Shown: in pieces, positions 2,892 through 61,679 of the stretch
How positions within the stretch are numbered: position 1 is the stretch's first letter
How the letters are laid out: every line of letters starts with the position of its first letter
Virus record (IMG/VR): IMGVR_UViG_3300048672_000970
Location: 64,001-128,000 of that record
Length of the DNA: 64,000 bases
Reading direction: 5' to 3' (one strand)
Source: a virus
Lineage: Duplodnaviria; Caudoviricetes
Translations under genes and position numbers: made by a program
Notes under the pieces: generated by a model
Database searches by the model: none
Told to the model about the DNA's origin: nothing
What the model saw: the letters and a program-made list of their open reading frames with translations, nothing else

Positions 2892-2909
2892 ACTTTCAAA
2901 GGATGCCGC

Positions 2910-3161: not shown

Positions 3162-3201
3162 TTGGTTATACGTGTATTGACCTGAACAAAGGACTTTCAA
3201 A

Positions 3202-3558: not shown

Positions 3559-3577
3559 GATTGACAAAGGAACTAAC

Positions 3578-3763
3578 ATGAAATTCCTTCAAATGCTTGC
3601 TTCGCCGTGGCTTGCCCTTTACATCCGAATTCGCTACGGCTCAACCCCTGGTCTTGCATATGGCTTTGCAACCGTGATGAACTGGTTCATCGCCATCATG
3701 GAAATCGTTGCCGTCTGTGGCATTTATGCCGCCTACTCTTTCATTTCGTACATCGTTCGTTAA
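3578..3763 (+). CDS. Small membrane protein
   Basis: AAGGA SD; hydrophobic segments. Confidence 0.6.
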   Translation: MKFLQMLASPWLALYIRIRYGSTPGLAYGFATVMNWFIAIMEIVAVCGIYAAYSFISYIVR

Positions 3764-3774
3764 GGAGAACTCTC

Positions 3775-3900
3775 ATGCAAACTGGAAAGACCATCATCAA
3801 GACTGAAAAGACGAAGGTTCGTAAGGAACCTAATAAGAAGGTTCAGAAGTGGGTTCGCAACAGCAACAAGCGTAACTTTGACATCAAAAAGCTGAGTTAA
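3775..3900 (+). CDS. Small basic peptide (41 aa)
   Basis: AAGGAG SD; MQTGKTIIKTEKTKVRKEPNKK..., Lys/Arg rich. Confidence 0.55.
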   Translation: MQTGKTIIKTEKTKVRKEPNKKVQKWVRNSNKRNFDIKKLS

Positions 3901-3945
3901 ACCACGGGGCATTAAATGACGCCCTCAATCATTTAAGGACTTAAC

Positions 3946-4671
3946 ATGTCTTTCGGACAGACTTTCAAGGATTTCGTTGCTAATGGCATCCTCACGCCTG
4001 CCATTAAAACTAATAATCTTCCGCCCGCATTCATTAGCATCCTGGACGCTTTGGCGGAAAAGGCGGAAGCGATGCGACCAATTAATGTCCCAGCCATCAC
4101 GGTTTATGAAAAAGATGGCGTCTACTTTGTCAAATGGGTTACCTACTGGTTCACTAACGACCCACGGTTTCCCGGTATGGAACTTCCAGTGCATATTCTG
4201 GATTATCCCGATGAGCAGATTGTTGCGGCCTATGAAAAGTGGCTAATTGAACAGCGCCAAAAGCAATTGCTTGCTGGAATCCGTGAACTACAAACAGAGT
4301 TCACAGCTCTCAAAGCGTGGCGAGAGGAACTGCAAAACCTTCTCACTACTGCACTGTCTGATGAGCAGAAACGCCAGCTCATGATTGCCGCCAATTCCAC
4401 CGCCATGAATGGCGCGTCAAATCGTGTTCTGCCGAATAGCCAAGAAATCATGCAAATCATTCGTGACCGTTTTTCAGAAGAAGAATGCAAAAACAATCTT
4501 CGTCTATTTCGTGGTTCAGAAGTTATGGGCGTCTACTGGCCGGGCAAGGTTACGGACTATAGTGGAAATTATCATCGTCCAGACTGCATCACGGTTGAAT
4601 ACACTTCTCTTGATGATTCAGAAGAAGATATGTGGCGTCACATTTATAAGCAACTGGAAATTGAGGTTTAA
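3946..4671 (+). CDS. Hypothetical protein
   Basis: AAGGA SD; central coiled-coil-like segment. Confidence 0.7.
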   Translation: MSFGQTFKDFVANGILTPAIKTNNLPPAFISILDALAEKAEAMRPINVPAITVYEKDGVYFVKWVTYWFTNDPRFPGMELPVHILDYPDEQIVAAYEKWLIEQRQKQLLAGIRELQTEFTALKAWREELQNLLTTALSDEQKRQLMIAANSTAMNGASNRVLPNSQEIMQIIRDRFSEEECKNNLRLFRGSEVMGVYWPGKVTDYSGNYHRPDCITVEYTSLDDSEEDMWRHIYKQLEIEV

Positions 4672-6835: not shown

Positions 6836-7144
6836 ATGCATTCTGAAAAAGTTAAAAACTATCTGCAGGCGCTAGAAGTGCTGGGCGACACGGAACCATT
6901 GCTGGAACAACTTGCTCGCCAGCAAATGAATATCTATGACCAGTGCAAGCATGGTCGAAACTATTGGTTAGGGCAATATTTTGAGTTCCGTCAGCATTAT
7001 GATGGTTCACTGCTGTGTATCAGCTATGAGGAACCTGGAGCCTTTGGTGACCATCCGAGAGAGGTTAATAGATGTATTCTGCACGAGTACATCATTGCTG
7101 GCGAACCGGAAAAATTTGAACAACTGCTAAGGAACGGAAAATGA
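6836..7144 (+). CDS. Hypothetical protein (family A)
   Basis: AAGGA SD; YIIAGEPEKFEQLLR. Confidence 0.65.
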   Translation: MHSEKVKNYLQALEVLGDTEPLLEQLARQQMNIYDQCKHGRNYWLGQYFEFRQHYDGSLLCISYEEPGAFGDHPREVNRCILHEYIIAGEPEKFEQLLRNGK

Positions 7145-7617
7145 TTGATAAGAAGATTGACTATAAACAGGCCGTTACCGAGTTTGTTGAAGCGCAAAAG
7201 GTCGTCAATGCGAAACATGTGTATATGCAAGACCTTGCTATTAAGCAGTTTCAAATCATGCACGACCTTGAAACCTTAATGAATTTTGATTCTACTTCAA
7301 GCGACTGCATCGATATCTATTGGGAATCAAGAATTGACTGGAAATTTGAGGTTCGTGATTATACCAAATTTCCAGACAGGCTTTTCTGCATTGGATTCAA
7401 CGAACATCGAGATGTGGTATGCAATTTTTGGTTGGACGAGGATATCATCAGTGGGGATGCTGATACATTCCGCGTTAATTATTCTGAATCGCTGGAAGCA
7501 CTGACAAAGAAACGAGAGACTTCACAAAAGAAAGCCGTTAAGCGGGCGAATGCTAAACGCTTGAAAGAACTCCAGACTGAGATTAAACGTCTGCAGCAGC
7601 AAATGGAAGGAAATTGA
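7141..7617 (+). CDS. Hypothetical protein (family A)
   Basis: ATGA overlap; DIISGDADTFR plus coiled-coil tail. Confidence 0.7.
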   Translation: MIDKKIDYKQAVTEFVEAQKVVNAKHVYMQDLAIKQFQIMHDLETLMNFDSTSSDCIDIYWESRIDWKFEVRDYTKFPDRLFCIGFNEHRDVVCNFWLDEDIISGDADTFRVNYSESLEALTKKRETSQKKAVKRANAKRLKELQTEIKRLQQQMEGN

Positions 7618-7618
7618 A

Positions 7619-8029
7619 ATGAATACCACCCAACAAACTATGGCAATGATCGGCTCGCAACTTTTTGCGGCCCAAACAACTCACGTGATGCTTATCAAAT
7701 GGGCTAAGGCCCAAGCGGAAATTATTCTGGATGTTCAGAAGGAAACTGGTGTGAATTTATGTTGTCGAGATGGTATTAATGTTTTACCAGAACGATGGAT
7801 TTTCACAAGTGTAGTGGATACTCAGAAACGGTTTTACGATGACGATAATCCATATCACATTTATTGTGATGGATATAAAAACATCGATAGCACTAGTGTT
7901 GCGTTCCCTGATATGACCTTTGCGATGGGGTTTGTGCTGCATCCATTGATTGTGGCCGGAAATACCGTTGGCTATGAAAAGTTTTTTCGGGCAGAACTTA
8001 TTGAGTATGCTGGCCGAAACCTTCGATAA
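7619..8029 (+). CDS. Hypothetical protein (family A)
   Basis: LIVAGNTVGYEKFFRAEL. Confidence 0.7.
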   Translation: MNTTQQTMAMIGSQLFAAQTTHVMLIKWAKAQAEIILDVQKETGVNLCCRDGINVLPERWIFTSVVDTQKRFYDDDNPYHIYCDGYKNIDSTSVAFPDMTFAMGFVLHPLIVAGNTVGYEKFFRAELIEYAGRNLR

Positions 8030-9444: not shown

Positions 9445-9532
9445 CCGCCATTGTCGAAACTAGAAAACGAAGTGGACTTAAAATCCACCGCCCTTGACGG
9501 GCTTGCAGGTGCAAATCCTGTATGGCGGACTA
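9445..9532 (+). tRNA. Atypical tRNA-Leu(UAA)-like RNA
   Basis: Anticodon arm GTGGA-CTTAAAA-TCCAC, long variable arm, T arm GCAGG-TGCAAAT-CCTGT; D-loop lacks GG, 3' end is CTA rather than CCA. Confidence 0.7.
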
Positions 9533-9543
9533 TGCGCATATTT

Positions 9544-9618
9544 GCGGGTATAGTTTAGTTGGAAAAACTACTGCCTTCCAAGCAGAAGTCGCCGGTTCGA
9601 TTCCGGCTACCCGCTCCA
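9544..9618 (+). tRNA. tRNA-Gly(UCC)
   Basis: GCGGGTA acceptor, CTGC-CTTCCAA-GCAG anticodon arm, GGTTCGATTCC, U73 and CCA. Confidence 0.92.
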
Positions 9619-9621
9619 AAT

Positions 9622-9709
9622 GGGAACGTATACCTCTAAGGAGAAGGCCCGGACTGTAAATCCGGTGTCCGAAAGGACTCGCTGTGATCGTTACACAGAG
9701 TTCCCACCA
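9622..9709 (+). tRNA. tRNA-Tyr(GUA), non-canonical T-loop
   Basis: CCGGA-CTGTAAA-TCCGG, GTCC-GAAA-GGAC variable arm, A73-CCA; T-loop ATCGTTA. Confidence 0.8.
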
Positions 9710-9716
9710 GAACAAC

Positions 9717-9791
9717 GCGTCTATCATACAATGGATAGTATAACGGTCTTCTAATCCGTAAATTTAGGTTCAATTCCTAATAGACGCCCCA
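9717..9791 (+). tRNA. tRNA-Arg(UCU)
   Basis: GCGTCTA/TAGACGC acceptor, loop CTTCTAA, D-loop GGA (A20), GGTTCAATTCC, CCA. Confidence 0.88.
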
Positions 9792-9798
9792 GAACAAA

Positions 9799-9874
9799 TG
9801 GGGTATAATTCAATTGGTTAGAATAGAAAACTTCTAATTTTCCTATCAGGGTTCGATTCCCTGTGCCCCAACCA
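9799..9874 (+). tRNA. Second tRNA with UCU anticodon (Arg by anticodon; Gln-like acceptor stem)
   Basis: TGGGGTA/TGCCCCA acceptor, GAAAA-CTTCTAA-TTTTC, CAGGG-TTCGATT-CCCTG, A73-CCA. Confidence 0.8.
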
Positions 9875-12180: not shown

Positions 12181-12255
12181 GGGCCGGTAGCTCAATGGCA
12201 GAGCAGCGAACTCATAATTCGACGGTCAATGGTTCAATTCCATTCCGGCCTACCA
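12181..12255 (+). tRNA. tRNA with CAU anticodon, probably Ile2 (lysidine type) rather than Met
   Basis: GGGCCGG/CCGGCCT acceptor, loop CTCATAA, A73-CCA; resembles enterobacterial tRNA-Ile2 body; own promoter (TAGAAT at ~12166). Confidence 0.85.
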
Positions 12256-16233: not shown

Positions 16234-16458
16234 ATGCAACAAATCCTGAAGCAACTTGAGTTATACGAACGACATGCTCTGATTGAACTTTTTCGTGAAG
16301 GGCCATTTGGTGACGAAAACCGTCCTCTTTTCAGTAAAGAACGGGCCATTCTGATTAACCTCGGATTGGCGAGCAAAATCGTTTGTAAGGGTGTTACTGG
16401 TTTCGCCGCCTGTACCGAACTCGGTGCCCAAATTTATCATGAACTGATGGAGTGCTAA
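16234..16458 (+). CDS. Hypothetical protein (possible small winged-helix-like)
   Basis: LINLGLA...TELG ending typical of wHTH; weak. Confidence 0.5.
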   Translation: MQQILKQLELYERHALIELFREGPFGDENRPLFSKERAILINLGLASKIVCKGVTGFAACTELGAQIYHELMEC

Positions 16459-37362: not shown

Positions 37363-37694
37363 ATTTCACGATTGCTAAAATTTGTTTAGTTATTGGCCTG
37401 TTAGGTATTGCCTATGTTAATGGCAAAAAGTTTGGCATTGCCGAACAGGCGATGGTTACTCATCGAGTGCAAGCCGAATATGATGCTTACCGACTTGAAC
37501 AAGAGTCGGCGATGAATGAACTACAAGCCAAAGCAAATGAGCAAGTAGCAATTGCAGACATGGCTAGTATCAAAAAGTCGGCGACCATTACTAAAATCGT
37601 TACGCAATTTGTTGACCGGCCGCCCGAACCTACGGAATGCTTTTTGTCTTCGCCGGCCATCAAAACCCTTAACGAATTGATTGCCATTCCATGA
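37359..37694 (+). CDS. Probable inner-membrane spanin (Rz-like)
   Basis: N-terminal TM, helical periplasmic domain, C-terminal Cys; directly followed by lipoprotein gene. Confidence 0.7.
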   Translation: MNFTIAKICLVIGLLGIAYVNGKKFGIAEQAMVTHRVQAEYDAYRLEQESAMNELQAKANEQVAIADMASIKKSATITKIVTQFVDRPPEPTECFLSSPAIKTLNELIAIP

Positions 37695-37951
37695 AATACA
37701 TATTAGCTGTTTTACTTTCCATTTTAGCGGGATGTGCATCACCAGTAAAAGCACCCGTGCAAGTAGTTTTACCCGTTAAGAAACTATCGATAAATCCTGA
37801 ACTGACTAAACCTTGTGTGCCATATACCACACCATTACAGCACGGCACTGAAGCAGAGTTGGTCATTTGGGTTGGAAATCTGGTAAAATCCTATTCTGAT
37901 TGTGCTATCATGCATGAAGCACTTGTAACTACATTAAAGGAGTATCAATGA
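37691..37951 (+). CDS. Probable outer-membrane spanin lipoprotein (Rz1-like)
   Basis: Lipobox LAGC, Pro-rich, PELTKPC...YSDCAIMHEAL. Confidence 0.75.
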   Translation: MKYILAVLLSILAGCASPVKAPVQVVLPVKKLSINPELTKPCVPYTTPLQHGTEAELVIWVGNLVKSYSDCAIMHEALVTTLKEYQ

Positions 37952-38211
37952 GCGAAAATGAACAAGTAAAGCGGTCGCGTGGTCGTCCACGCAAGATTCG
38001 TCCAGAAGACGCCAATGCGGCGAAGATAGATGCATTTAACGTCTTTTGCGAACAGCTTCACTTCGCTTATGATTTTGGGCAAGACACTAAACCGTTCTTT
38101 GTTCGGTTAGTCAACTATGCGAAAGAGGTGTCAGATACTGGTAAAGAATCTGAACAAGATTATCAATCGCGGCTTGATGCCGCATTCAAGAAATTCATTG
38201 GAGATTTTTAA
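37948..38211 (+). CDS. Small protein with AT-hook-like motif
   Basis: KRSRGRPRK. Confidence 0.65.
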   Translation: MSENEQVKRSRGRPRKIRPEDANAAKIDAFNVFCEQLHFAYDFGQDTKPFFVRLVNYAKEVSDTGKESEQDYQSRLDAAFKKFIGDF

Positions 38212-38447
38212 TGACTGCGTATAACGACATTACTGGTGATGCAATTCAATCGAAGCTGGCTACTGAAGCTTATGTTTCAAATCATGCATCCATTTTTACT
38301 CAGAAGCGTGAGCAATGGTTTTACCATTCGTCGAATGGTAAGGTTCCGTGTGAAGTGATTGGTCGAACTGGTGCTGATTTTATTATCAAGGTGGGCGAAG
38401 AATCTGTTACTGTGCCGTTCAGTCTTTTATCAAAGGAACGACTATGA
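38211..38447 (+). CDS. Conserved phage hypothetical protein
   Basis: NDITGDAIQSK..TEAY..N...IF pattern. Confidence 0.7.
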   Translation: MTAYNDITGDAIQSKLATEAYVSNHASIFTQKREQWFYHSSNGKVPCEVIGRTGADFIIKVGEESVTVPFSLLSKERL

Positions 38448-46300: not shown

Positions 46301-46348
46301 AGCAGACGGGTACGTTCTATTTTTTATCTCTGCGTGAAAGGAAACCCA

Positions 46349-48304
46349 ATGAGTCTCCCCATGAGTATTACCGCCCTGGCCGCCCGCGTTGCGGAAAAGT
46401 ATGAAACCGTTGCGCTGTCTGTCGAGCAATGGTACGAACAAGCGGCTTCCGCGCCGGATATGTATGCTGGGGTTCATGCCCGGCTCCTGAAGGCAATTGG
46501 TGATCCAATCATCATTGACACGAAGGCAGACGCGCGGCTAAGTCGCATTTTCTCGGGTCGCAAGATCCGGGTTTATGAGCCGTTCAAGGATTTCTTCGGC
46601 ATCGAAGAAACGATTGATGAAATTATCAGCAAGCTGCGCGCTGGCGCGCAAAATCAAGAACCGGCTCGCCAAGTTCTTGACCTTGTTGGCCCGGTTGGTT
46701 CGGCAAAGTCTTCACTGGCTCGCCGTCTCGTCAGCCTAATTGAAAAGGAACCAATCTGGGTGGTAGCTACCGCGAAGGGTGACGTTAGCCCCGTTAATGA
46801 CAATCCGCTGGCGTTCCTGCGACTGCTAGGCGATGCTGAATCACTGTGCAAGGATTTTAACATTCCTGTCTCGGTCATGTCAAAGGTTTTCCCGTCGCCG
46901 TGGCTTGTTCAGCAATTCAAGGATGCTAAGTCTGACCTGACCAAGTTCCAAATTCGCAAGGTTTATCCGAGCGTGCTGGAGTCGATTGCAGTTGCTCGCA
47001 TCGAACCGGGTGATGAAAACAATCAGGATATTTCCACGATTGTTGGTAAGACTGACCTTCGCTCGCTGGAAAAGTATCCTCAAGAGCACCCGTATTCGTA
47101 CAGCTATTCGGGCGGTCTGTGCCGCGCCAACCGGGGCGTCGCTGAATTTGTCGAAATCTTCAAGGCACCGACGAAGGCTCTGCATCCCATTCTGACCGCA
47201 ACTCAGGAGTACATTTATAACGGCACTGAAAACATTGGCGCCCTTCCTTTCGATGGCCTGATTATCGCCCACCACAATTCGAGTGAATGGGACGAATTCC
47301 GCACCAATCCGAAGAATGAAGCATTCCTCGACCGACTGTGTGTTGTTCAAGTACCGTACACGCTTCGTCACGCTGAAGAAGCCGCCATCTACAAGAAGAT
47401 GATTGACCAGAGCACCACGCCAAATGTGCCGATTGCTCCGGGTACGATTGAAATGCTGGCAAAGTGGAGTGTTCTTTCTCGCCTGTCGGCTCCGGCTAAT
47501 TCGTCCATCATTGCCAAGCTGCATGTCTATAACGGCGAAAACGTCAAGGATCGTATGCCGACTGCCAAGCCGATTGGCGAATACCGAGACGCCGCCGGCC
47601 TGCATGAAGGTATGACGGGGATGTCTACCCGGTTCGCGTTCAAGGTGCTGGCAGATACGTTTGACCTTCGTCCGGAAGAAATGCAAGCGAATCCGGTTGA
47701 CCTGATGTTTGTCCTGCAAGAAGCCATTAAGAAGGATTCAACGCTGGCTGACGCTCGACGGGAAGAACTGCTCAACTTCATTGAAAGCCACCTGAAAGTT
47801 GAGTATTTCGAGCTGCTGGATAAGCAACTGCGCGAAGCGTACATGGAAAGTTTTGGCGCCTATGGGCAAAATATGTTCGACCGATACGTCAGTCTGGCCG
47901 CCGCGTGGATTGATGCTGAAGTCATTCGAGATCCTGAGACTCACATGACTCTCGACCGACAAGCCATTAACGGCAAGCTTGAAGAAATTGAAAGGCCAGC
48001 CGGTGTTATGAATGTTAGTGATTTCCGCCATAACATCGTGACCTATGTGCTCCGGTATCAGGCGCGTAATGCCGGTGCGTCACCGCGTTGGCAGGATTAT
48101 GAGAAGATCAAGACGGTCATTGAAAAGAAGCTGTTCACCGGCACGCAAAACATTCTGCCGGTCATTTCGTTCGGCACGAAGCAAGATTCTGAAATTGAAT
48201 CGAAGCATCATGCATTCGTTGACCGAATGATTGCAATGGGGTACACCAAGCACCAGATTGAAATTCTGGTTGCATGGTGGAGTGCCAATACAAAGGCAGC
48301 CTAA
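46349..48304 (+). CDS. prkA: PrkA/YeaG-family AAA+ serine kinase
   Basis: FFGIEETI, LVGPVGSAKSSLA, YSYSGGLCRANRG..EFVEIFKAP...LHPILTATQE, EAFLDR, GMSTRFAFK. Confidence 0.95.
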   Translation: MSLPMSITALAARVAEKYETVALSVEQWYEQAASAPDMYAGVHARLLKAIGDPIIIDTKADARLSRIFSGRKIRVYEPFKDFFGIEETIDEIISKLRAGAQNQEPARQVLDLVGPVGSAKSSLARRLVSLIEKEPIWVVATAKGDVSPVNDNPLAFLRLLGDAESLCKDFNIPVSVMSKVFPSPWLVQQFKDAKSDLTKFQIRKVYPSVLESIAVARIEPGDENNQDISTIVGKTDLRSLEKYPQEHPYSYSYSGGLCRANRGVAEFVEIFKAPTKALHPILTATQEYIYNGTENIGALPFDGLIIAHHNSSEWDEFRTNPKNEAFLDRLCVVQVPYTLRHAEEAAIYKKMIDQSTTPNVPIAPGTIEMLAKWSVLSRLSAPANSSIIAKLHVYNGENVKDRMPTAKPIGEYRDAAGLHEGMTGMSTRFAFKVLADTFDLRPEEMQANPVDLMFVLQEAIKKDSTLADARREELLNFIESHLKVEYFELLDKQLREAYMESFGAYGQNMFDRYVSLAAAWIDAEVIRDPETHMTLDRQAINGKLEEIERPAGVMNVSDFRHNIVTYVLRYQARNAGASPRWQDYEKIKTVIEKKLFTGTQNILPVISFGTKQDSEIESKHHAFVDRMIAMGYTKHQIEILVAWWSANTKAA

Positions 48305-48307
48305 ATC

Positions 48308-48329
48308 AAAGGGGCTTCAGCCCCTTTTT
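48308..48329 (+). terminator. Rho-independent terminator after prkA
   Basis: GGGGC-ttca-GCCCC-TTTTT. Confidence 0.8.
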
Positions 48330-48345
48330 CTTTACAGGAAAAGTT

Positions 48346-49695
48346 ATGAATAAAATGTCTGCATATGTCATCGGAGCCGGCGTGATTGGCATTAACACCG
48401 CTCACCGACTCGCTGCCGATGGTTTTAACGTTACTGTTTTCGATTCGGAACATGATGTCGCCCTTGACACTTCTTATAGAAATGGCGGCCAGCTTTCTGT
48501 CGGCCATTGTGTTCCGTGGAGTAATCCATCTGCGCCTGCTAAAGTCCTTAAGTGGCTCTTTCAAAAAGATGCACCCCTCCTTTTCACGCCACGTTTTTCT
48601 GTTAAGCAACTGAAATGGATTGCCAATTTCTTCCGGCAATGTACTCGGTCTAATACCGATTTCAATACCGAATCCCTTATCAATCTTGGCATGCTGTCAC
48701 GAGATGCGATGCAAAATCTTCAAGCGGCATATCCTGAAGTTCTAGCTAATGAAAAATTTAGCAAACTGGACAACGGTATTATCCATTTCTATCGCAATGA
48801 AAAAGAATACAATGATGCGGTTAGGGATGTTATCTTCATGAATGGATGTGACCTTGAACGAAAACTGATTTCCAGAGAGAAAGTTTTTGAACTTGAGCCT
48901 AGTTTGCAAATGAATGAAAACATTATCGGCGGCACATATACTCCTGGTGATGCGTCGTGCGATGTCCATCAGTTCACAAAAGCTATTGCATCCATTACCG
49001 AGTTTCCAAATTCCGGTGGGTCAATCAGATATAAACTCCGGCATTACGTTCGTGAGCTGGTCTGTGATGAAGATAGTGGTCGAATTGTTTCTTTAACCGT
49101 GTATGACGAAGACAACGATGGTATCGTTCATTTTGCCGATAATCCGGATGTCGTTGTAGTTGCAGCGGCCAATTCGACATATGATTTGGTTAAGCCGTTA
49201 GGTATCAATCTGACCATGTATCCGGCCAAGGGGTATTCAGCTACTATCAAACTTCACCCTGATGAACTTGATAAAGCCCCTTACGTCAGTTTGACCGATG
49301 ATGAAAACAAACTAGTGTTTTCTCGTCTAGGCGATACTTTGCGAGTTGCGGGCACAGCCCATCTGACAGACGAGCCGACATGGATGTTGGACATGGTTCG
49401 GTGCAATTCTCTGATTGAAAAAACTAGAAGCATCTTTGACATTCGAGCCGATGAGTATGAATTCTGGTCGGGTGCTAGACCGCTAACACCTAGTAACAGA
49501 CCTTACATCTGTTCAACTGACTATGAAAATCTGTTTCTGAACACCGGGCATGGGTCACTTGGCCTTACAATGTCAGCAGGTTCAGCAGAATTACTTTCTT
49601 ACATTATTGCCAATAGCCTTTACGGCGTAAGTATGCTACAGTGTGATGAAATGGATGCTATGGTGAAAGCTTTCTCCCTGGACATCGCCCATTGA
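48346..49695 (+). CDS. dadA: D-amino acid dehydrogenase (FAD-dependent)
   Basis: VIGAGVIG Rossmann, TSYRNGGQLS...PW, YPAKGYS, FSRLGDTLRVAG, W.G.RPLTP, LFLNTGHGSLGLTMSAGSA. Confidence 0.9.
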   Translation: MNKMSAYVIGAGVIGINTAHRLAADGFNVTVFDSEHDVALDTSYRNGGQLSVGHCVPWSNPSAPAKVLKWLFQKDAPLLFTPRFSVKQLKWIANFFRQCTRSNTDFNTESLINLGMLSRDAMQNLQAAYPEVLANEKFSKLDNGIIHFYRNEKEYNDAVRDVIFMNGCDLERKLISREKVFELEPSLQMNENIIGGTYTPGDASCDVHQFTKAIASITEFPNSGGSIRYKLRHYVRELVCDEDSGRIVSLTVYDEDNDGIVHFADNPDVVVVAAANSTYDLVKPLGINLTMYPAKGYSATIKLHPDELDKAPYVSLTDDENKLVFSRLGDTLRVAGTAHLTDEPTWMLDMVRCNSLIEKTRSIFDIRADEYEFWSGARPLTPSNRPYICSTDYENLFLNTGHGSLGLTMSAGSAELLSYIIANSLYGVSMLQCDEMDAMVKAFSLDIAH

Positions 49696-49739
49696 ACCGA
49701 CGACCCGCTTCGCGGGTCTATTACACGAAAGGAATTGAA

Positions 49740-51056
49740 ATGAGTGTGCAACCTTCGCAACCTTCGCTAATTTTCATCGACCGAACCAAGACTGGTCGCG
49801 GTAGTTCGGCCGCCAATCGAGACAAGTATCTGAAGCGCATTAAGGCATCAGTAAAGGCTGCGCGAAATATTGCCCTCGGCGGGCTGACATCTGACACGAA
49901 GCAAACGGTCAATCCGATCACCGTCGCCCGGCAAAAGCTTAATGAACCGTCTTTCCATTATGACCATTCAACGGGCGTCATTACGAACGTTTTGATTGGC
50001 AACCAAATTTTTGAACGAGGTGATGAAATTCCCATGAAGAATTCGTCGGAAGGGCAAGGGGACGGTTCGGGAAATGGTGCTGGCAATGGTGGCAATGGCG
50101 AAGATGATTTCATCGTGCATGTCACGAAAGATGAATTTCTCAATATCTTCTTTGAAGATTGTGAGCTGCCGAACATGCAGCATAACTCAAAGAAGCAATT
50201 GAAGCTGCCAACCTTCCACAAAGCCGGGTATCGAACGTCCGGCAGTCCGGCCACTCTGTCTGTTATCAAGAGCTTCAAAAACTCTCTCGGACGCAGAATT
50301 GCCATCAAGGGGTCTTTCCAGTCGCGGATTGATGAACTGACCGAACAAGATAACGTCCTTGCCGAACTGATTCAAAGCCAGGATATTGAACTTGAACGAG
50401 CTTGTATCAAGGAAGAAATTACTGAACTGACTTCCCGAAAAGGCAAAGTCATGTTTTTTGACGACATGGATTTGCGGTATCGGAAAATGGAGCAAGAGAC
50501 GAAACGAACGGCTGATGCTATTTTCGTGATGATCATGGACGTTTCCGGGTCGATGGATCAGGAACGCAAAACGATGGCACGCAAGTTTTTCAGTCTGCAA
50601 TACGCTTTCCTGAAGCGACATTATCCTGACACTCAACTGGTCTTCATTGCTCATACTGAAACTGCTGAAGAAATGGATGAGGATGAATTTTTCTCCACTC
50701 GCATTTCTGGTGGCACGGTCGTTTCCCCTGCATACGAACTGGCTCTGGAAATCATTCAGGAACGATTTGATGCAAATGTTTCAAATATCTACTTGTCACA
50801 AGCGAGTGATGGTGATAACATGGAGTCTGACAATGCGAATCTAATTCCGGCTCTGGAACAGTCGGGACTTCTGAGCAAGATTCGGCACATGAGTTACATT
50901 CAAACGTGCCCGAAATCTCAATGGCATTATTCGCATGGGATGTGGGACGTACTGCAAAGTATCGCCCACACCCATCCGGAAAAGTTTGGTATGCAGCAAA
51001 TCACATCTGATGCAGAAGTGTTCGACGCATTCAAGGCAATTTATCACAAGCAATGA
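49740..51056 (+). CDS. yeaH: YeaH/YhbH (DUF444) vWA-domain protein
   Basis: IDR..S.ANR..YLKR, FEDCELPN, F.DDMDLRYR, MDVSGSM, FIAHT..AEE.DEDEFF, GGT.VS, Q.SDGDN. Confidence 0.93.
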   Translation: MSVQPSQPSLIFIDRTKTGRGSSAANRDKYLKRIKASVKAARNIALGGLTSDTKQTVNPITVARQKLNEPSFHYDHSTGVITNVLIGNQIFERGDEIPMKNSSEGQGDGSGNGAGNGGNGEDDFIVHVTKDEFLNIFFEDCELPNMQHNSKKQLKLPTFHKAGYRTSGSPATLSVIKSFKNSLGRRIAIKGSFQSRIDELTEQDNVLAELIQSQDIELERACIKEEITELTSRKGKVMFFDDMDLRYRKMEQETKRTADAIFVMIMDVSGSMDQERKTMARKFFSLQYAFLKRHYPDTQLVFIAHTETAEEMDEDEFFSTRISGGTVVSPAYELALEIIQERFDANVSNIYLSQASDGDNMESDNANLIPALEQSGLLSKIRHMSYIQTCPKSQWHYSHGMWDVLQSIAHTHPEKFGMQQITSDAEVFDAFKAIYHKQ

Positions 51057-51064
51057 AAGGATTG

Positions 51065-52576
51065 ATGATGGAGCAAATTACTAGCAAGACCGTCTGGTCT
51101 GAACAGCTCATTCGAGCTGTTTGGGAAGAAATTAAAATCGTTGCAGAAGAAGAACTGGAAATTAGTTTTCCGGAGCATCTGTACCCATTTCAAATCGAGA
51201 TGATTACGGCTGATTCAATGATTAATGCCTATGCGAGTATTGGCATGCCCATCATGTACTCACACTGGAGTTTTGGTAAGGAATATATGCGCAATAAGCA
51301 CGCATATGACAACGGGCAGTCGGGGCTAGCTCTAGAGCTGATCACAAACGATTCCCCGTGTTCCACAATGCTGATGGAAGATAACGCCATGTACCAACAG
51401 GCGATGGTCATTGCGCATTGTGTCGGTCATAACAGCTTTTTCAAGTGCAATGATTATTTCGTCCAATGGACTAACGCCGGTTCCATCATTGATTACCTAG
51501 CGTTTGCCAAGCGGTACATCACGCAATGTGAACTGCGGTACGGTGAAGAAGAAGTTGAACGGGTACTTGATGCCGCGCATTCTCTAGCTCAACATGGTGT
51601 TGACAAGCATCCCCGCAAGTCGGCCCGAAAGATGACTGAATCTCAGTACCTGCAAATGCTTGTTGAAAAAGAAGAACGTGAGATGCAGGAATCGGACTAT
51701 ATCCTGAACCGGACGAAGCTGAAATCATCTGACAAGGATGAACCGAGTCCAGATTGGATGGATGAAACTTATGACCCGCTCGTCGGGGAAGAAAACCTGC
51801 TTTATTACATCATGAAGCGGGCGCCCAACATGCCGACCTGGAAACGTGAAATTCTGCGTATCGTCTGGAAGATTAACCAATATTTCTATATTCAGGGGCA
51901 GACGAAGATTAGCAATGAAGGGTGGGCCAGTTTCTGCCACTATTTCATCATGACTCGACTTGAAGAAAAGGGCGTTATTAGCAGTGATGCGTTCCTCGCT
52001 TTCCTGCGCGACCATTCGGGTGTTATTTTCCAACCGACGTTTGACAAGCAGTATTATTCCGGCGTGAATCCTTACGCAGTGGGTTTTGCCATCTATCAAG
52101 ACATCAAGCGGATTTGCGAAAATCCAACTAATGAAGATAAGAAATTTATGCCGCATCTCATTGGGCAGAAATGGCAAGATGCTGTTACGCGGGCCGCTTT
52201 TGAATATCGTGATGACAGTTTCATCATGCAATTCATGTCTCCGAAAGTGGCGCGGGATTTGGCGCTGTTTTCAGTAGAAATTAGTACCAAGCAAAATGTC
52301 CTTGGGCAGAAAAAGCAAACTGCTCTGGTAACGGACGTCGCCGATTTGGACGGGTTTCGCAACCTGCGCAATATGATGGCTGAGAATACTCAACGGATTG
52401 AGCACGTGCCTGAAATCAGGGTTAGTGGTGCTGATTTTGAGGGCGATCGAACGCTGGTGCTGCACTATCATCCGTACAAAAATCGAGAACTGGACGTTGA
52501 AGATACGCAAGCAGTCATTTCGTACATTGATGAACTGTGGGGATATCCGGTTGAACTTTACACGGTGACGGGTTAA
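51065..52576 (+). CDS. spoVR: SpoVR/YcgB family protein
   Basis: YASIGMP.MYSHWSFGK, LELITN, VIAHC.GHNSFFK.N, NEGWASFCHY, NPYA.GF, RDDSFI.QF. Confidence 0.95.
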   Translation: MMEQITSKTVWSEQLIRAVWEEIKIVAEEELEISFPEHLYPFQIEMITADSMINAYASIGMPIMYSHWSFGKEYMRNKHAYDNGQSGLALELITNDSPCSTMLMEDNAMYQQAMVIAHCVGHNSFFKCNDYFVQWTNAGSIIDYLAFAKRYITQCELRYGEEEVERVLDAAHSLAQHGVDKHPRKSARKMTESQYLQMLVEKEEREMQESDYILNRTKLKSSDKDEPSPDWMDETYDPLVGEENLLYYIMKRAPNMPTWKREILRIVWKINQYFYIQGQTKISNEGWASFCHYFIMTRLEEKGVISSDAFLAFLRDHSGVIFQPTFDKQYYSGVNPYAVGFAIYQDIKRICENPTNEDKKFMPHLIGQKWQDAVTRAAFEYRDDSFIMQFMSPKVARDLALFSVEISTKQNVLGQKKQTALVTDVADLDGFRNLRNMMAENTQRIEHVPEIRVSGADFEGDRTLVLHYHPYKNRELDVEDTQAVISYIDELWGYPVELYTVTG

Positions 52577-52808: not shown

Positions 52809-53160
52809 ACTGTTTGCGATGGCTGTCGCAGTTGGCACAATGATGTATTTCCTGCAAGATGCCGGGAAAGCCATTCAGCTTTGGGCCTGTGTATATTTTG
52901 CCGTAGCCTGCATGTTCATGATGGAACTGCTTATGTTTCAATACACCAATAACACCCTTGGCCTGAAAACCATGCTTGATAAACTTCCAAAGTTGAATTT
53001 CTGGGGAACCACTCGCACTACTGGTGATTTGGCATGGCTGGTCGTCTCGGCCGTTATTCTTCTTTCTCCAATTGGTACAGTTTTCGTCCTGTTCCCGATT
53101 GCCATCGTGTGTGCAGTAACCGGGCAAAGTGCAGAAGAACTTATCGGATTCATCAAGTGA
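52777..53160 (+). CDS. Membrane protein
   Basis: AAGG SD; 3 hydrophobic segments. Confidence 0.6.
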   Translation: MNKFFQSLNYKLFAMAVAVGTMMYFLQDAGKAIQLWACVYFAVACMFMMELLMFQYTNNTLGLKTMLDKLPKLNFWGTTRTTGDLAWLVVSAVILLSPIGTVFVLFPIAIVCAVTGQSAEELIGFIK

Positions 53161-53185
53161 AAAAGCCGGGCATTGCCCGGCTTTT
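53161..53185 (+). terminator. Rho-independent terminator
   Basis: GCCGGGC-att-GCCCGGC-TTTT. Confidence 0.88.
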
Positions 53186-53227
53186 CTTTTTCCTGATTGG
53201 AGTAAATAGATGAAACCAACATACATA

Positions 53228-57021: not shown

Positions 57022-58416
57022 TTATTCACCCATCTTCTTTTTCAGCTCTTGCACTTGGGCCGACAATTCTTTAACAGCTTCTACCAGTAACGAAGTTAAC
57101 CGTTCATACCTGACTGTAATATAGTCCGGATTGAAAGCAGTTGGAGCAACCATATCTGGCGCGACCATCTGCACATCTTGTGCAATCAATCCATGCTCAT
57201 GAGTCCTACTCGGTTTATAACCTGCAGACTGACAAACTTCCACATCCCAATCATATTCAACACCTGTCAGCGAAGAAACTTTATCTAACGCATTTTCAAT
57301 CCGTTTGATATTCTTTTTCAGACGAACATCTGAAGCGCCAAAAATAACATCACCGGCCGCAGATACATCACCCCCTGAATAGATATTTCCGCCAACTGCC
57401 ATGCCGCCTGTCAGGATAACTGCCCCGGTACTGGTACTTGTTGAGTTAGTCGCATTGGACGAAATAAGTACACCCGTCATTGTGTCACCCGCTTTTTGAA
57501 CATATCCGGCCAGTGAGGAACTGTTAACAGTGGCAGTTAACGTCACATCAGATGACCCATTGAACGCGACACTTCCCGCCAAATCTCCAGCAAGGGTAAT
57601 TGTTCTGGCAGTCTGTAACTTAACTGCATCGGTGGCAAGAGTTGCCGTTCCGGCATTTCCCGAAATTGAAATTCCATACGAACCGGACAACCGAGCAGCA
57701 GGAACTACACCGGACGTTAAATTATCTGCATTCTGATAGAAACTGGCTAATTGGCCGTTTAGTTGAGATGCTGACCCGGAAATACTGATTGAGTAAGTTC
57801 CGGCCAGTCTACCCGATGGAACTGTACCAGCATTCAGATTGCCAGCATTTTGATAGAAGGCGCCATGTTGTCCATCCAGTAAATCAGCATCAAGTCCAGA
57901 AGCAGCACCGTCATTAGCGGAATGCCATACTTGATTAGACCTGAATGTCAGGCCCGTATCAGAGGATGCATCGATAACTAATCCATTGGTGAGAGTGCCC
58001 CCATTCCCAACCCATGAATTGCCCTGTCCAATCGACACAATACCATTCTGTCCCGAGATTATAGCAGGTTTGTTCAAACCTCCTGAATCTTTGTTACCAA
58101 TCAGTAACCGTTGTTCACCCGTCGCGGCAGTCAGTGAAAGCAAATTTGGCACAGAAAGCGGGCCGGTCATTGTGTCACCCGCGATAGCAACATAAACGCC
58201 TACTAAATCTGCCGGCGATAAACCAACGCGTTGCCATGCTTGACCCACTTGTGAACCGGGCGTGGATGGAAGTAAATCCTGCACGAACCCATATAGATAC
58301 AGGCCAGTAGGTTGAGAGTCAGAGATAGTTTTGTAATACAGCGCGCCATCGTAGCTGTCTGCATTGTTCGGGAGAGTGTCCCCATAAGCGGCGGCCGAGC
58401 CTGAAAGAGTCTTCAT
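57022..58416 (-). CDS. Tail fibre protein with C-terminal intramolecular chaperone (peptidase S74)
   Basis: YVxxxGDTMTG repeats, DADLLDGQH, SDVRLKKNI..ALDKV..L.G..Y.W..GLIAQDV..V.YERL..LLVEAVKEL. Confidence 0.88.
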   Translation of the reverse strand: MKTLSGSAAAYGDTLPNNADSYDGALYYKTISDSQPTGLYLYGFVQDLLPSTPGSQVGQAWQRVGLSPADLVGVYVAIAGDTMTGPLSVPNLLSLTAATGEQRLLIGNKDSGGLNKPAIISGQNGIVSIGQGNSWVGNGGTLTNGLVIDASSDTGLTFRSNQVWHSANDGAASGLDADLLDGQHGAFYQNAGNLNAGTVPSGRLAGTYSISISGSASQLNGQLASFYQNADNLTSGVVPAARLSGSYGISISGNAGTATLATDAVKLQTARTITLAGDLAGSVAFNGSSDVTLTATVNSSSLAGYVQKAGDTMTGVLISSNATNSTSTSTGAVILTGGMAVGGNIYSGGDVSAAGDVIFGASDVRLKKNIKRIENALDKVSSLTGVEYDWDVEVCQSAGYKPSRTHEHGLIAQDVQMVAPDMVAPTAFNPDYITVRYERLTSLLVEAVKELSAQVQELKKKMGE

Positions 58417-58499
58417 TGTGGCTTTTTCCTTGTTTGCCTTTATTTAGGATGACGGCTGAAGCCAGTTGGACTGTGTCTGGTGGCGACGGTGTTCGGATG

Positions 58500-59340
58500 C
58501 TGAAACCAAACGGGCTAAAACGCGCTAGGAGCGATTTGTTGGTGGAAGGTAGGCATGGGTAGCTTGACGGATGAAATCGGCTCTATGACCCGTTTAAGTG
58601 CCTTCGCGGCCCATGCTCTTATTTGTCACCTATAGGAGTTTATTGAATGAATGGAAAAGCCGGTAGGTCAGTCGGTTGGTTCCGTTCAGAGAAAGGCTGG
58701 TAGCCGGTTTGTGTGATTGGTTAGCTCAAGCGAGTTAGCTACATGTTGGTTTAACGGCTGTTAGCGCGTTCGTTGACCTGTTGGCTACCTGGGTAGTCTG
58801 TTGAGAGAAAACGGCGCTAATGCCCGTTAAACGCATTCTGGTAGCATGTTCTTATTTGTCACCTATAGGTATTTCTCAAATGAGTGGAGAGAGCTTGGTG
58901 GGTGGCTTAGGTTGATTAGCTCTCAGAAAAGCTCGGTCAAGCAGTGGCGTGAGTCGGCTTGCAGCCGGTAGGCTCAAGGTGCGAAAGAACTGCTTGACTG
59001 CTGAAGCCCTAACGGGCTGAGGTTATGTGTACAGATAGGTTAACAAACGGATGTCTAGTATCTGATAGATGAGCCTATAGAGCGATTAGGTAGAGAGGTA
59101 GCTACCCTGGTAGCCTAACGGATGAAAACGGCTCTAAAGCCCGTTAAGGCTCATTACGAGTCAATTCCTTATTTGTCACCTATAGGAGTTAGTCGAAGAA
59201 ATGAGAGGAAGGGTGGTTGGTTAGGTTGGTTCAGAGAAAAGTTAGCCGGAGTGATCAGGGCTGGCTTGACTGCTTGTTAGAGCAGCAAACAGCGAATGAC
59301 TACCCCGGCTACTGAAAAGCCCTTTAGGGCTTAAGGTTAG
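58500..59340. repeat. Non-coding three-unit hairpin/box array
   Basis: Identical CTTATTTGTCACCTATAGG at 58618, 58851, 59168, each 28-29 nt after a CCCGTT(T)AA hairpin base; no ORF of 60 aa or more. Confidence 0.85.
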
Positions 59341-59343
59341 GTG

Positions 59344-60813
59344 TTAATAGCCTCTAAGTTCGATTCTGTCATGTTCGTCAAGGAAACGCATGAACACCAC
59401 ATTTTGAAGAAGTTCATAGTTGGTGATGTCTAACTCAGTATTTTGGTATTCATCCATAGTTTCTTTAACCTTTTTTCGGATGGCAGTCGGTTCTGCTAAA
59501 AACTTTTTAACTTGGGTTAAACGATGTTCGTTGAATTGATTTGTCCAAGTGATGACATCTCGCGGAAGATAATCGGCAATGTCAATTGAGTATTCATCAA
59601 ATTCTTCGTCGTTTTCTATAGCGGCATCACGCGCCGCATCAACATCTTGTTCATACCTCTTATACCCGTCGTTGTATTCTTCCACCTGTGCATTTACATA
59701 TGGCTGCAGGTCACGGTCGAAATATTCAGCACCATGCTTTTTCATATCTTCATCAGATACAACCAATATGTGATTAACTAAATCTGGTGAAGTTCGTACA
59801 TACTCGCGCACGATATCCATATGGGGATACTTCTGTTCAAACTCAAGTGCCCATAAAATCTGTCCATTAAACTCATTCTGTGGTTCGTCAATCATGGCTA
59901 GTTGTTCACCATCTTGTTGAATGACAGCCAAATCAGCCAAATCAGATTTTTGAAGCACGATGATGTTCTTTGCTGGGTTTGCGTTATCGATGAAAAACCA
60001 GTGTCGTGAATAATCATTCCAGAAAGATTTTGTTTCAGCGGCGGCTAAAGAAGCATTGGCGAACGCTGACAGAAGTTTTGAATCTCCATCAAGTTTGAAA
60101 TGTTCTTTGATGATGCGTTGCATGATGGCAGGGGTGTTATAATGGGTGTCATAGACAGTCACGCCATGTTCAGCATGTGGTCGTTCAGCCAATACAGCTT
60201 TGTGTTTTGATTTCTGAATGGCATTGATGATAAATGTCATCATGTTTTTTACTGCGCCAACCGTAGGATTCATTTTCCCCCAGATGAATCGACGGAATGA
60301 AAACGCCCCCTTAACAATACCATTTTCCGATTGCTCGACCCGTTCGGTAATGTCTCGATTGGCTTGGTTGTACCGTTGCATAAATTCGGTGGCAAGGTCA
60401 TCAATCGCGTCTTCAAGTTCGTCAGAATCCACGTCTACATCTTCTTCAACTGTCGTGACGATTTTTTCCCATTTGAAACGGAATGATTGGCGGTCAAATC
60501 TATTCAGAAAATAAGTGAAATGTGGATCAAGTGCCGGGTCGGTTGCACGATTATAGTTGGTGAATTGCATGGCCAGCGCGGAAAAGTTATGTGTACCGCT
60601 GCTATTATCCGCCGTGATATTAACGTAAGGTGTGACGATTGCCCCAATCAACCCTTGGGCATATTTCTCTTTCCCATATACTCCTGGCATAAAATAAACG
60701 TTCTCTTTTCGATGTTTGGAAAACTGCTTGTAATAATCTGAATAATCAGTTCCCCAATATGATTCACGTAACACAGGGTCGGTGAATGCTTCCAAAATAT
60801 GCTTTAGCTTCAT
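59344..60813 (-). CDS. Large hypothetical late protein, putative virion internal protein
   Basis: TAAATA (minus) at 60833; MKLKHILE. Confidence 0.75.
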   Translation of the reverse strand: MKLKHILEAFTDPVLRESYWGTDYSDYYKQFSKHRKENVYFMPGVYGKEKYAQGLIGAIVTPYVNITADNSSGTHNFSALAMQFTNYNRATDPALDPHFTYFLNRFDRQSFRFKWEKIVTTVEEDVDVDSDELEDAIDDLATEFMQRYNQANRDITERVEQSENGIVKGAFSFRRFIWGKMNPTVGAVKNMMTFIINAIQKSKHKAVLAERPHAEHGVTVYDTHYNTPAIMQRIIKEHFKLDGDSKLLSAFANASLAAAETKSFWNDYSRHWFFIDNANPAKNIIVLQKSDLADLAVIQQDGEQLAMIDEPQNEFNGQILWALEFEQKYPHMDIVREYVRTSPDLVNHILVVSDEDMKKHGAEYFDRDLQPYVNAQVEEYNDGYKRYEQDVDAARDAAIENDEEFDEYSIDIADYLPRDVITWTNQFNEHRLTQVKKFLAEPTAIRKKVKETMDEYQNTELDITNYELLQNVVFMRFLDEHDRIELRGY

Positions 60814-60866
60814 AGGTCTATTCATTTAGAAGTATTTATCAATAAATAACTCAAAATGACAATGGT

Positions 60867-61679
60867 ATGCAACTTCTTCAAGAACTCATCGGTATCAAGA
60901 AATATTCCGGGATGACCATCATCAATGCTATCAAGCAAATTGTGCAACGAACACCAGCCGGAATCAAAACTTTCAGCGGGTCATTTGGTATCACTTTGGT
61001 TGCAGATGCATTACCGTATGTGTACAAAGTTTGGTTAGCTGACGCGGCGTATGAAAAATATATTGAACTGGTGTTAGCTCACCAAGATAACCCATTTTTC
61101 CCAAAAGTGATTGGAGATGTAGTTGAGTTGAAAAACATCTTTGCTGAAGGAAAACCACCTATTCCAACTATCAAAGTAATTCGATTGGAAAAGCTGAAAC
61201 ATGGAAATTTGTCAGAATTGAAAAATGAGGCGTTAGCCAGTGTCATTCGAGCTGGATTCGTATCGCTGGAACGTGATACCAATAAAGACCGTGTGAAAGA
61301 AAAAGTAATTCAGCGTATCAAGGAATTAGAAATTGCCTATAACGGATTCAAGACTGATTCTAAAACTGGCGCCAATCTGGCTTATATACAAAAAGCTAAT
61401 GGTAATCCGACACGCACGTTTGTCGCTTCAAATGAAGTGATGAAAGGTCGCAGTAAAGCGGCGGCGTATCTGGCTATTTCAAAAATGGATGTTGATAAGC
61501 TGGTTGACACCATTATTCAAATCCATGAAGCCTGTACTGCTCTGAACAAAATCGACCCGGAATATGATGTCTATGCGGACATGCACGAAGGCAACATCAT
61601 GTTCCGGGCGAATGGTGAATTAGTTATCACCGACCCGATGACATCTAGTAAAGGTACATACCCATTGACTCTGTTTTAA
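60867..61679 (+). CDS. Protein-kinase-like protein 3
   Basis: SGSFG, VYKVW, YEKY, FFPKV, ADMHEGNIM, VITDP; TAAATA at 60843; MQLLQEL. Confidence 0.75.
   Translation: MQLLQELIGIKKYSGMTIINAIKQIVQRTPAGIKTFSGSFGITLVADALPYVYKVWLADAAYEKYIELVLAHQDNPFFPKVIGDVVELKNIFAEGKPPIPTIKVIRLEKLKHGNLSELKNEALASVIRAGFVSLERDTNKDRVKEKVIQRIKELEIAYNGFKTDSKTGANLAYIQKANGNPTRTFVASNEVMKGRSKAAAYLAISKMDVDKLVDTIIQIHEACTALNKIDPEYDVYADMHEGNIMFRANGELVITDPMTSSKGTYPLTLF

Follow-up and report, generated by a model that had tools for sequence, protein, structure and literature searches.

An ORF-free stretch in the 64-kb window of phage DNA analysed here (positions 64001-128000 of an IMG/VR virus record of 200,363 bp with an estimated completeness of 56%) was found to be one of at least five homologous cassettes. 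Each cassette is a row of units of one architecture, in which a conserved box is preceded by a long inverted repeat and followed by sequence whose composition and folding are RNA-like on one strand and whose helices carry compensatory changes; the family is conserved in two other contigs. Our preferred reading, held tentatively, is that every cassette comprises three or four autonomous non-coding RNA genes in tandem, each with the box as its promoter, and that the inverted repeat acts at the DNA level or in a terminator-like manner. From the sequence we infer that the box is a dedicated promoter, and transcription from it is predicted. The phage, an uncultured myovirus from fresh water, belongs to the Rak2 / PA5oct / XacN1 / RsoM2USA jumbo-phage supergroup and shares 44% identity with RsoM2USA in the baseplate wedge protein.

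In the window, the stretch (58417-59343) lies between a tail-fibre gene (57022-58416, minus strand) and a gene for a 493-aa protein of no known family (59344-60825, minus strand). An ORF scan of the window revealed no reading frame above 52 aa within it. As an earlier note on this DNA had pointed out, this is the largest ORF-free part of the window: with ORFs of at least 90 aa counted, it spans 927 bp, compared to 749 bp for a row of 78-87-aa ORFs and 726 bp for a group of tRNA genes. The 19-bp box reported in that note, CTTATTTGTCACCTATAGG, was confirmed as exact plus-strand matches at 58618, 58851 and 59168, with spacings of 233 and 317, and is absent elsewhere in the window even when 3 mismatches are allowed (chance expectation 0.02 matches). 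An inverted repeat precedes every box, and the spacer between them is nearly constant (~28 nt); the hairpin at a fixed distance described earlier is real. Also present are the apex GCTACC-NN-GGTAG, the second-hairpin stem GTCAAGCAGT/ACTGCTTGAC (58936-58945 / 58989-58998) and, after each box, the G/T-rich tract and TCAGA(G)AAA motif, which are followed by further hairpins. The units are not decayed coding genes, for they contain no ORF and have no similarity to coding sequence; small conserved ORFs were likewise rejected by the ORF scan and by comparison of the units.

Extending the search to the rest of the 200-kb record revealed 17 boxes with at most 2 mismatches, located in five homologous ORF-free cassettes: A1 (51.8-52.8 kb, plus strand), A2 (60.6-61.5 kb, minus strand), A3, which is the present locus (122.4-123.3 kb, plus strand), A4 (153.5-154.7 kb, plus strand) and A5 (182.5-183.9 kb, minus strand). 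These are the five largest gaps without an ORF of at least 90 aa in the record. The cassettes align end to end, starting with the 5' arm of the first inverted repeat and finishing with the last short hairpin, and no conserved sequence was detected upstream of that arm when the five were compared. The order within a unit is the inverted repeat (H), the ~28-nt spacer, the box, a leader of ~75 nt and then, in two units per cassette and in one unit of A5, a ~100-nt D domain. The cassettes of the record have 3-4 units each (2 to 4 when the array of contig G001, described below, is included), the box-to-box spacing is 176-349 bp, and (GTCA)n and (GGTT)n tracts are expanded in some leaders. The cassettes adjoin tail, baseplate and virion genes, and an 8-kb module lies between A1 and A2, which are inverted relative to each other. 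Since there are five or more paralogous cassettes, a single packaging site is unlikely and a single origin impossible, both of which had been among the options considered earlier. Template and variable repeats of a DGR were rejected because the cassettes match only cassettes.

Alignment of the 17 boxes yielded 15 invariant columns that form one contiguous block: the core TTATTTGTCACCTA, with an AT-rich 5' part, then W-R, an invariant G and S. The box precedes no ordinary gene in the record and is confined to the cassettes. Among the 8-mers that precede genes, the class with the strongest enrichment in this genome is a T4-late-like box, (G)TAAATA(A/C). The idea, put forward in the earlier note, that the minus strand of the box is a late promoter did not hold: this strand reads CAAATAAG in 17/17 copies, not GTAAATA(A/C), and the RNA-like signal is on the opposite strand. 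A sigma-70 promoter was rejected as well, since no -35/-10 pattern above chance exists near the box (1 bipartite site found compared to 1.2 expected, and on the other strand). DnaA, IHF and sigma-54 sites were rejected for want of a consistent match by eye.

A TAAATA motif of its own, located between the cassette end and the ATG, was found for each of the genes that follow A1 (baseplate wedge), A2 (an M23/GH108 lysin) and A4 (a 2738-aa virion protein); A3, A5 and the G001 array run towards a convergent gene and face its 3' end. INDEPENDENCE of the cassettes from the neighbouring genes is evident. The upstream neighbour is divergent in 5 of the 6 arrays, and in A4 a canonical terminator stops ~10 nt before the first inverted repeat. 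These divergent neighbours and the A4 terminator leave no room, and there is no conserved sequence, for a promoter upstream of a cassette; a transcription start upstream of the first inverted repeat therefore appears unlikely. On the left of A3, the late-promoter-like TAAATA box of the divergent tail-fibre gene (58437-58448, reading CCTAAATAAAGG on the minus strand) lies outside the cassette and marks its upstream limit.

A3 itself begins with H1 (58509-58602, plus strand), a long inverted repeat that folds, has a degenerate apex and is the weakest copy (17 bits, E 0.08, with the long-hairpin covariance model R1). It is followed by box 1 (58618-58636, plus strand), consisting of the core TTATTTGTCACCTA and W-R-G-S, the proposed promoter with the invariant G as putative +1. 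Payload a (58637-58743, plus strand) has no D domain; it consists of a leader with a nested hairpin (GAAUGGAA...UUCCGUUC around AGCCGG...UCGGUU), then TCAGAGAAAGG and a short hairpin, and is supported by a fold z of -3.6, an alignment of 20 leaders and strand asymmetry. The second unit starts with H2 (58744-58835, inverted repeat I1, given no strand), which matches model R1 with 108 bits on the plus and 43.8 bits on the minus strand and has the stems GTTTAACGG/CCGTTAAAC and TGTTAGCGC/GCGCTAATG and the apex GGCTACC-N4-GGTAGTC. Box 2 (58851-58869, plus strand) is an exact match. Leader b (58870-58923, plus strand) contains a small hairpin, a G-rich tract and GAGAGCU...AGCUCUC. D domain b (58924-59022) matches the D-domain model R2 with 108.9 bits on the plus strand only. 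Its 12-bp closing stem P1 (58934-58945 / 58989-59000) is preceded by CAGAAAAGCU and encloses the inner hairpin GCUUG-[CAGCC-GGUA-GGCU]-CAAG, followed by GCGAAAG; the terminal hairpin is GAAGCCC-UAAC-GGGCUGAGG.

In the third unit, H3 (59060-59151, no strand assigned, 32.3 bits with model R1) has AUGAGCC / GGCUCAU in place of the usual outer stem, extending into the spacer. The swap is suggestive of a helix under selection, but is confined to this one copy. Box 3 (59168-59186, plus strand) is again an exact match. It is followed on the plus strand by the purine-rich leader c with its GGGUGGUUGGUUAGGUUGG tract (59187-59231) and by D domain c, variant II (59232-59335), which matches model R2 with 34.1 bits and folds into a closing stem and the inner element GGCUUG-[ACUGCUUG-UUAG-AGCAGC]-AAAC. 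The same architecture recurs, with different helix sequences, in contig L136. The terminal hairpin of D domain c, AAGCCC-UUUA-GGGCUU (59317-59332), is followed by UUUU on the minus strand and, judged by its sequence, could end the convergent 493-aa gene there.

The sequences before and after the box were found to behave differently. The long inverted repeats are real: when the register is slid, pairing falls from 80% to 21-53%. Their pairing is nevertheless no better than in shuffled alignments (80.4% vs 80.2%; 228/500 shuffles), there is no compensatory excess, and the arm-swap test gave p = 0.68. RNAalifold applied to a plain MAFFT alignment of the long hairpins returned no structure; the model R1 alignment was left out of the counting because both strands are aligned together in it. 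Model R1 matches both strands. The hairpins of units 2-4 are strand-symmetric (29 vs 31 G-U pairs), so that the G.U-compatible mismatches noticed previously on the plus strand hold for unit 2 itself and not across the copies; the first-unit hairpins do fold better on the box strand. The 3' arm is more conserved than the 5' arm. An attC-like core, GTTTAAC...GTTAAAC, is present in some copies, and others have GTTTAAG, GTTAAGG or GTTAACC. We conclude that the inverted repeat is conserved in sequence, with no sign of a selected RNA helix. One lies ~28 bp before each of the 17 boxes, including the first box of an array, and it can therefore not be just the 3' end of an RNA from the unit before.

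Downstream of the box the sequence is RNA-like. The D domain consists of CAGAAAAGCU, a 12-bp closing stem, an inner GCUUG-[hairpin]-CAAG/CAAA with a GGUA, GGAA or GCGA loop, GCGAAAG and a terminal hairpin GAAGCCC-N3-5-GGGCUGAGG. Across seven copies, compensatory changes on both sides were seen at 9 of the 12 closing-stem pairs, with pairing in 94% of cells, a result matched by 0/500 shuffles, although these counts are inflated because the copies are paralogues of one genome and not independent samples. Sliding the partner by 1-3 columns reduces pairing to 22-47%, and native arms fold better than swapped ones (mean -31.2 vs -23.9 kcal/mol for the chimeras, p = 0/5000). Model R2 detected nine copies in the record and a further one in G001; every match lies within a cassette and on the box strand. 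For whole payloads the mean MFE is -46.7 kcal/mol on the box strand and -32.3 kcal/mol on the opposite strand, with 174 and 30 predicted G-U pairs, respectively; the box strand folds better in 19 of 20 units, by 13.4 kcal/mol on average. Each cassette has a GC skew of +0.18 to +0.26, independent of the genome orientation; the skew reaches +0.4 to +0.5 at 20-80 nt past the box, with runs of GG tracts.

The earlier proposal of a selected structured element, in which sequence had diverged while pairing was kept, thus stands for the covarying, box-strand-specific sequence after the box, the second hairpin in particular, and falls for the long hairpins. Among the options then listed, an array of small structured RNAs is favoured because the helices after the box covary and the signal is box-strand-specific, with the amendment that there are at least five such cassettes. 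No U-run follows the terminal or the long hairpins on the box strand, and since the terminal hairpins lack one, the RNA 3' ends are undefined. A search of the window with Rfam 15 covariance models matched only tRNAs, and for the cassettes nothing was retrieved at E <= 1-10 beyond one chance-level snoRNA match. Hammerhead and other ribozymes were rejected on the same grounds. The predicted folded non-coding RNA is thus a member of no named family and would represent a family not yet described. Among the sequencing runs listed for this stretch there was no RNA run; a single presumed-RNA run yielded two short contigs, possibly of DNA, and the reads of four runs gave only short sibling-strain contigs and cross-mapping paralogues, with no usable ends.

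The cassette is conserved in relatives. The 32.6-kb IMG/VR viral contig L129/G001 contains, at 7420-7900, a two-unit array with the same box, leader and D domain, and the cassette is the sole similarity between G001 and the record (G000). The second relative, the 3.4-kb Logan contig L136, shares synteny with A3 on the right flank, encodes a flanking protein 49% identical to its counterpart and breaks inside the box. Retained in its unit are the ~40 nt directly after the box and, in the D domain, the closing, inner and terminal helices, whose sequences differ; global identity between this unit and the paralogues was not discriminating. The known carriers are thus three contigs of one lineage. 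Similarity searches with cassette DNA against 50,697 phage records gave no match. In IMG/VR, a box search with 14 specified bases produced only chance single matches and a two-box pattern nothing, while a pattern of hairpin end plus box gave 6 matches against an estimated ~6 expected, the one in L129 being real. Two-box and single-box patterns retrieved nothing from JGI metagenome contigs. GTDB genomes contained 9 box matches, compared to an estimated ~35 expected by chance; two of them, in Undibacterium, fall in one orthologous coding gene. In RsoM2USA the box occurs at chance level, and the D-domain model had no match in RsoM2USA, PA5oct or G002. Flanking proteins led to no useful relatives in IMG/VR. 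Separately, an H-like element (24 bits) with a terminator-like U-run at its end was seen in an unrelated viral contig, inside a non-coding region of 1.27 kb.

The simplest model for a strand-neutral, non-covarying segment before the box and a strand-specific, covarying one after it is that the box is a promoter and the payload its RNA. The box (15-19 bp, contiguous, with a T7/T3-like start region C-TATA/TAAA-G) would serve as the dedicated promoter of each unit, with the invariant G as +1. The G/U-rich RNA made from it would consist of a ~75-nt leader, to which two units per cassette (one in A5) would add the ~100-nt folded domain with its 12-bp closing stem and an end formed by a short GC hairpin. 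The ~90-nt inverted repeat would most likely be a DNA-level regulator site, an insulator or a site that halts incoming transcription irrespective of strand. So high a number of gene copies points to a stoichiometric role, and our guess is that the RNA may act as an abundant decoy or scaffold.

The weak point of the promoter reading is the missing reader of a T7-like box. The single-subunit RNA polymerase family PF00940 had no match in the 200-kb record, that is 56% of the genome, nor in G001 or RsoM2USA, although the control genomes could give no match for this family. Sigma-70 region 2 likewise had no match in the 200 kb, and protein scans revealed no polymerase among the large proteins of the record, which led us to reject a polymerase hidden among the largest of them. 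RsoM2USA, the nearest cultured relative, has no annotated RNA polymerase (PMC8504454), and PA5oct depends on the host polymerase (PMC7318152). Moreover, identity of the box to T7, T3 and SP6 promoters is confined to positions -5..+2. With no such polymerase visible and relatives that use the host enzyme, it has to be assumed that the box would be read by a specificity factor for the host polymerase or by the product of a gene in the unsequenced 44% of the genome. A bolder version of the promoter reading, to which we give low credence, is that the box is the promoter class of a dedicated transcription system that serves only this high-copy structured-RNA family, with at least 17 genes per 200 kb. 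A phage polymerase or specificity factor as yet unseen, perhaps encoded in the missing 44%, would then produce large amounts of these RNAs in infected cells, where they would act as decoys, as scaffolds or against host defence.

It is possible, though doubtful, that each cassette is transcribed as one long (~0.9-1.2 kb) precursor or large modular RNA. The box would then be an RNA-level element, either an endoribonuclease recognition or cleavage site or a segment for pairing or tertiary contacts, and the long hairpins would be processed by an RNase III-type enzyme, like the sites between T7 early genes or in CRISPR and ToxI-type repeat arrays. The positive GC skew extends over the whole cassette, including most of the inverted repeat, and the box-strand preference of the first-unit hairpins is also in line with such a transcript; the box of several units can form base pairs with GGUAGGUG or CAAAUGA further downstream, and the combination of a long irregular hairpin with an AU-rich single strand after it is reminiscent of a nuclease site. 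A precursor would, however, have to start where no conserved promoter candidate is found and, in A4, ~10 nt beyond a canonical terminator. The strand symmetry of the hairpins of units 2-4 and the lack of covariation in the long hairpins also speak against it, as do the 15 invariant bases, which exceed the usual need of a nuclease site, and the absence of an Rfam match to any large RNA.

Transcription-primed (R-loop) replication origins of the kind of T4 oriF/oriG or the T7 primary origin are an unlikely explanation. The box would fire into the G-rich non-template tract, and the hybridised RNA would prime DNA synthesis; the strong skew and GG-tract runs just past the box are as this would predict. 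Five dispersed sites are no obstacle, since several origins are normal in T4-type replication, and the record encodes the T4-like replication proteins SSB, UvsX, topoisomerase II, helicases and ligase. A1 is located at the main strand-switch and at the minimum of the cumulative skew. The other four cassettes, including A3, are not at skew inflections. Furthermore, priming needs no 3-4 tandem promoters with different payloads, the covarying helices and GNRA-type loops of the D domain are typical of folded free RNA, and a conserved AT-rich unwinding element was not seen in the cassettes.

The cassettes might also be PeSL-like terminator-promoter elements for insulation and homologous recombination, with a payload that is a leader without a function of its own; this too we consider improbable. 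The recurrence of a hairpin and a promoter-like box at module borders, beside genes for tail, baseplate and virion proteins, would fit, as would the inverted A1 and A2 around an 8-kb module, the variation in unit number from 2 to 4 and the fact that G000 and G001 share only the cassette. PeSLs, however, have sigma-70 consensus promoters and flank ORFs (PMC2839356), neither of which is the case here; the payload helices covary, and the downstream genes use late promoters of their own.

Least probable in our judgement is an array of sites for a phage DNA-binding protein, acting as DNA only (for partition or packaging, site-specific nicking for clamp loading, or an attC or IS200/605-type hairpin recombinase), which fits the invariant box, the strand-neutral, non-covarying inverted repeat and the resemblance of some hairpin ends to attC core sites (GTTTAAC ... 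GTTAAAC), but leaves the strand-specific covarying payload and the 176-349 bp spacing unexplained, has an R' core that fits only part of the copies, and would, through recombination of direct cassettes 30-70 kb apart, delete essential genes. Tyrosine recombinase (PF00589, absent from the 200 kb; control genomes positive 14/14) and Y1 (HUH) transposase (PF01797, also absent from the 200 kb) were rejected as partners.

We compared the tandem RNA-gene arrangement favoured here with known systems. GOLLD, found in lake metagenomes, and ROOL are large structured phage-associated non-coding RNAs in Rfam; the cassettes match neither at E <= 1-10, and are modular with internal promoter-like boxes. The rsmX arrays and CsrB-type decoys are examples of multi-copy sRNA genes in tandem, each with its own promoter, whose high dosage suggests titration of a partner. 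Head-to-tail paralogous genes and high dosage are common to them and the cassettes, which is an analogy only; unlike rsmX and CsrB, the cassette has no established GGA-loop repeat pattern and no canonical terminator.

The T7 promoter ends with ...CACTATAGG and the T3 promoter with ...CACTAAAGG. The box resembles promoters of the T7 group in being contiguous and near-invariant over ~17-19 bp, with an AT-rich 5' part, a C-TATA/TAAA-GG end and a purine start; the CTATAGG or CTAAAGG of the box is also that of the T7 and T3 promoters. The T7 layout, with its RNase III hairpins, also places a long irregular hairpin near a promoter. T7-group promoters, however, serve phage protein genes, whereas the box never precedes protein genes, and PF00940 is missing from the record and from RsoM2USA. 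Like the cassettes, T4 oriF and oriG occur at several sites per genome and have a promoter directed into a tract prone to form RNA-DNA hybrids; they are, however, single promoters in or beside genes with an unwinding element and have neither tandem units nor covarying RNA domains.

Within the same jumbo-phage supergroup, PA5oct has four long non-coding RNAs defined by RNA-seq, two of them very abundant, that are described as 'lacking known promoters' (PMC7318152). They share with the RNAs predicted here the location in ORF-free regions and the lack of a recognised promoter, yet they are single-copy, have no repeated box and have no sequence or model similarity to the cassette RNAs. Abundant non-coding RNAs are known in the Rak2/PA5oct/XacN1 supergroup, and to our knowledge none has been defined by structure as a family. 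The present locus offers such a family, with compensatory helices and a fixed architecture of inverted repeat, box, leader and domain. Its dosage is unusual: roughly half of the genome contains at least 17 units, spread over five or more cassettes. A promoter function of the box would imply a transcription specificity beyond the known late (TAAATA) and sigma-70 signals, and if a dedicated system reads it, jumbo phages would have in the cassettes a new class of RNA, served by a promoter class of its own. Other huge-phage assemblies can be searched with the covariance models; short-read contigs are prone to break at repeats of this kind, as happened in L136.

Among described elements, the PeSL of T4-type phages comes closest: it combines a stem-loop with an early promoter, is repeated in the genome and mediates module exchange (PMC2839356, PMC4122927). 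Both are composites of a stem-loop and a promoter, putative in the case of the cassette, present in many copies in a T4-related myovirus at module borders, and both are candidate sites of homologous exchange. PeSLs are short, have sigma-70 promoters and flank ORFs in hyperplastic regions, whereas the cassette units are 176-349 bp long, tandem and ORF-less, with a box that is not of the sigma-70 type. Of the three PeSL features tested, the repeated stem-loop next to a (here putative) promoter is thus present, and the sigma-70 promoter and the flanking ORFs are absent. We class the locus as a family of phage non-coding RNA genes headed by a composite of hairpin and putative promoter; it lies outside all named families and adds covarying RNA domains to a PeSL-like layout.

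Over the whole record, the 80 nt preceding start codons are enriched 15–18-fold in the motif (G)TAAATA(A/C), which is therefore probably the late promoter of the phage. Examples are found at window positions 58437–58448 (minus strand), at about 6650–6700 of L010, the DNA that carries ORF-free cassette A4, and at about 7740–7770 of L009, which carries cassettes A1 and A2. A second word enriched before genes throughout the record, AA(G/T)GTAACA(G), may represent a further class of promoters.

In the leaders of first-type units there are two kinds of microsatellite, (GTCA)n and (GGTT)n, that vary in length; they lie at about 7040–7070 (A1 unit 1) and 16290–16340 (A2 unit 1) of L009 and at about 5950–5990 of L010 (A4 unit 2). 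Runs of GGTTGG in these leaders could form two-tetrad G-quadruplexes.

A terminator-like hairpin of 27–29 nt, of the AAAAAGCCGGGCATTGCCCGGCTTTTT type, is near-identical at two sites of the phage record (G000), 153514–153540 and 117160–117188 (window 53160–53188), and at 2655–2683 of L129, an otherwise unrelated 32.6-kb contig (G001). In another viral contig, L155 (IMGVR_UViG_3300037313_000101), a 1.27-kb non-coding region (2907–4175) contains a long hairpin that resembles the inverted repeat H of the units, scores 24 bits with its covariance model R1 and ends as a canonical terminator. More hairpins and an (AT)n tract are present in the same region.

The second-largest gap of the window lacking an ORF of at least 90 aa is probably coding, since it is filled by a row of three small plus-strand ORFs (86, 87 and 78 aa) at 37691–38447. 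Five tRNA genes (Leu-UAA, Gly-UCC, two Arg-UCU and Met-CAU) lie at 9445–9874 and 12181–12255. The 270-aa protein encoded at 60867–61679 (plus strand) shows weak similarity at its C terminus to protein kinase families of the T7 type (phrog_15752, E 7e-7); its homologue on L136, a 3.4-kb Logan contig syntenic with the right flank of A3, bears a weak Phage_T7_kinase Pfam mark.

Within the phage, a plus-strand gene row at window 46334–52576 encodes PrkA, an FAD oxidoreductase (DAO), YeaH/DUF444 and SpoVR. The SpoVR-like protein is 41–44% identical to proteins of the nearest cultured relative, jumbo phage RsoM2USA, and of three 630–640-kb "huge phage" records.
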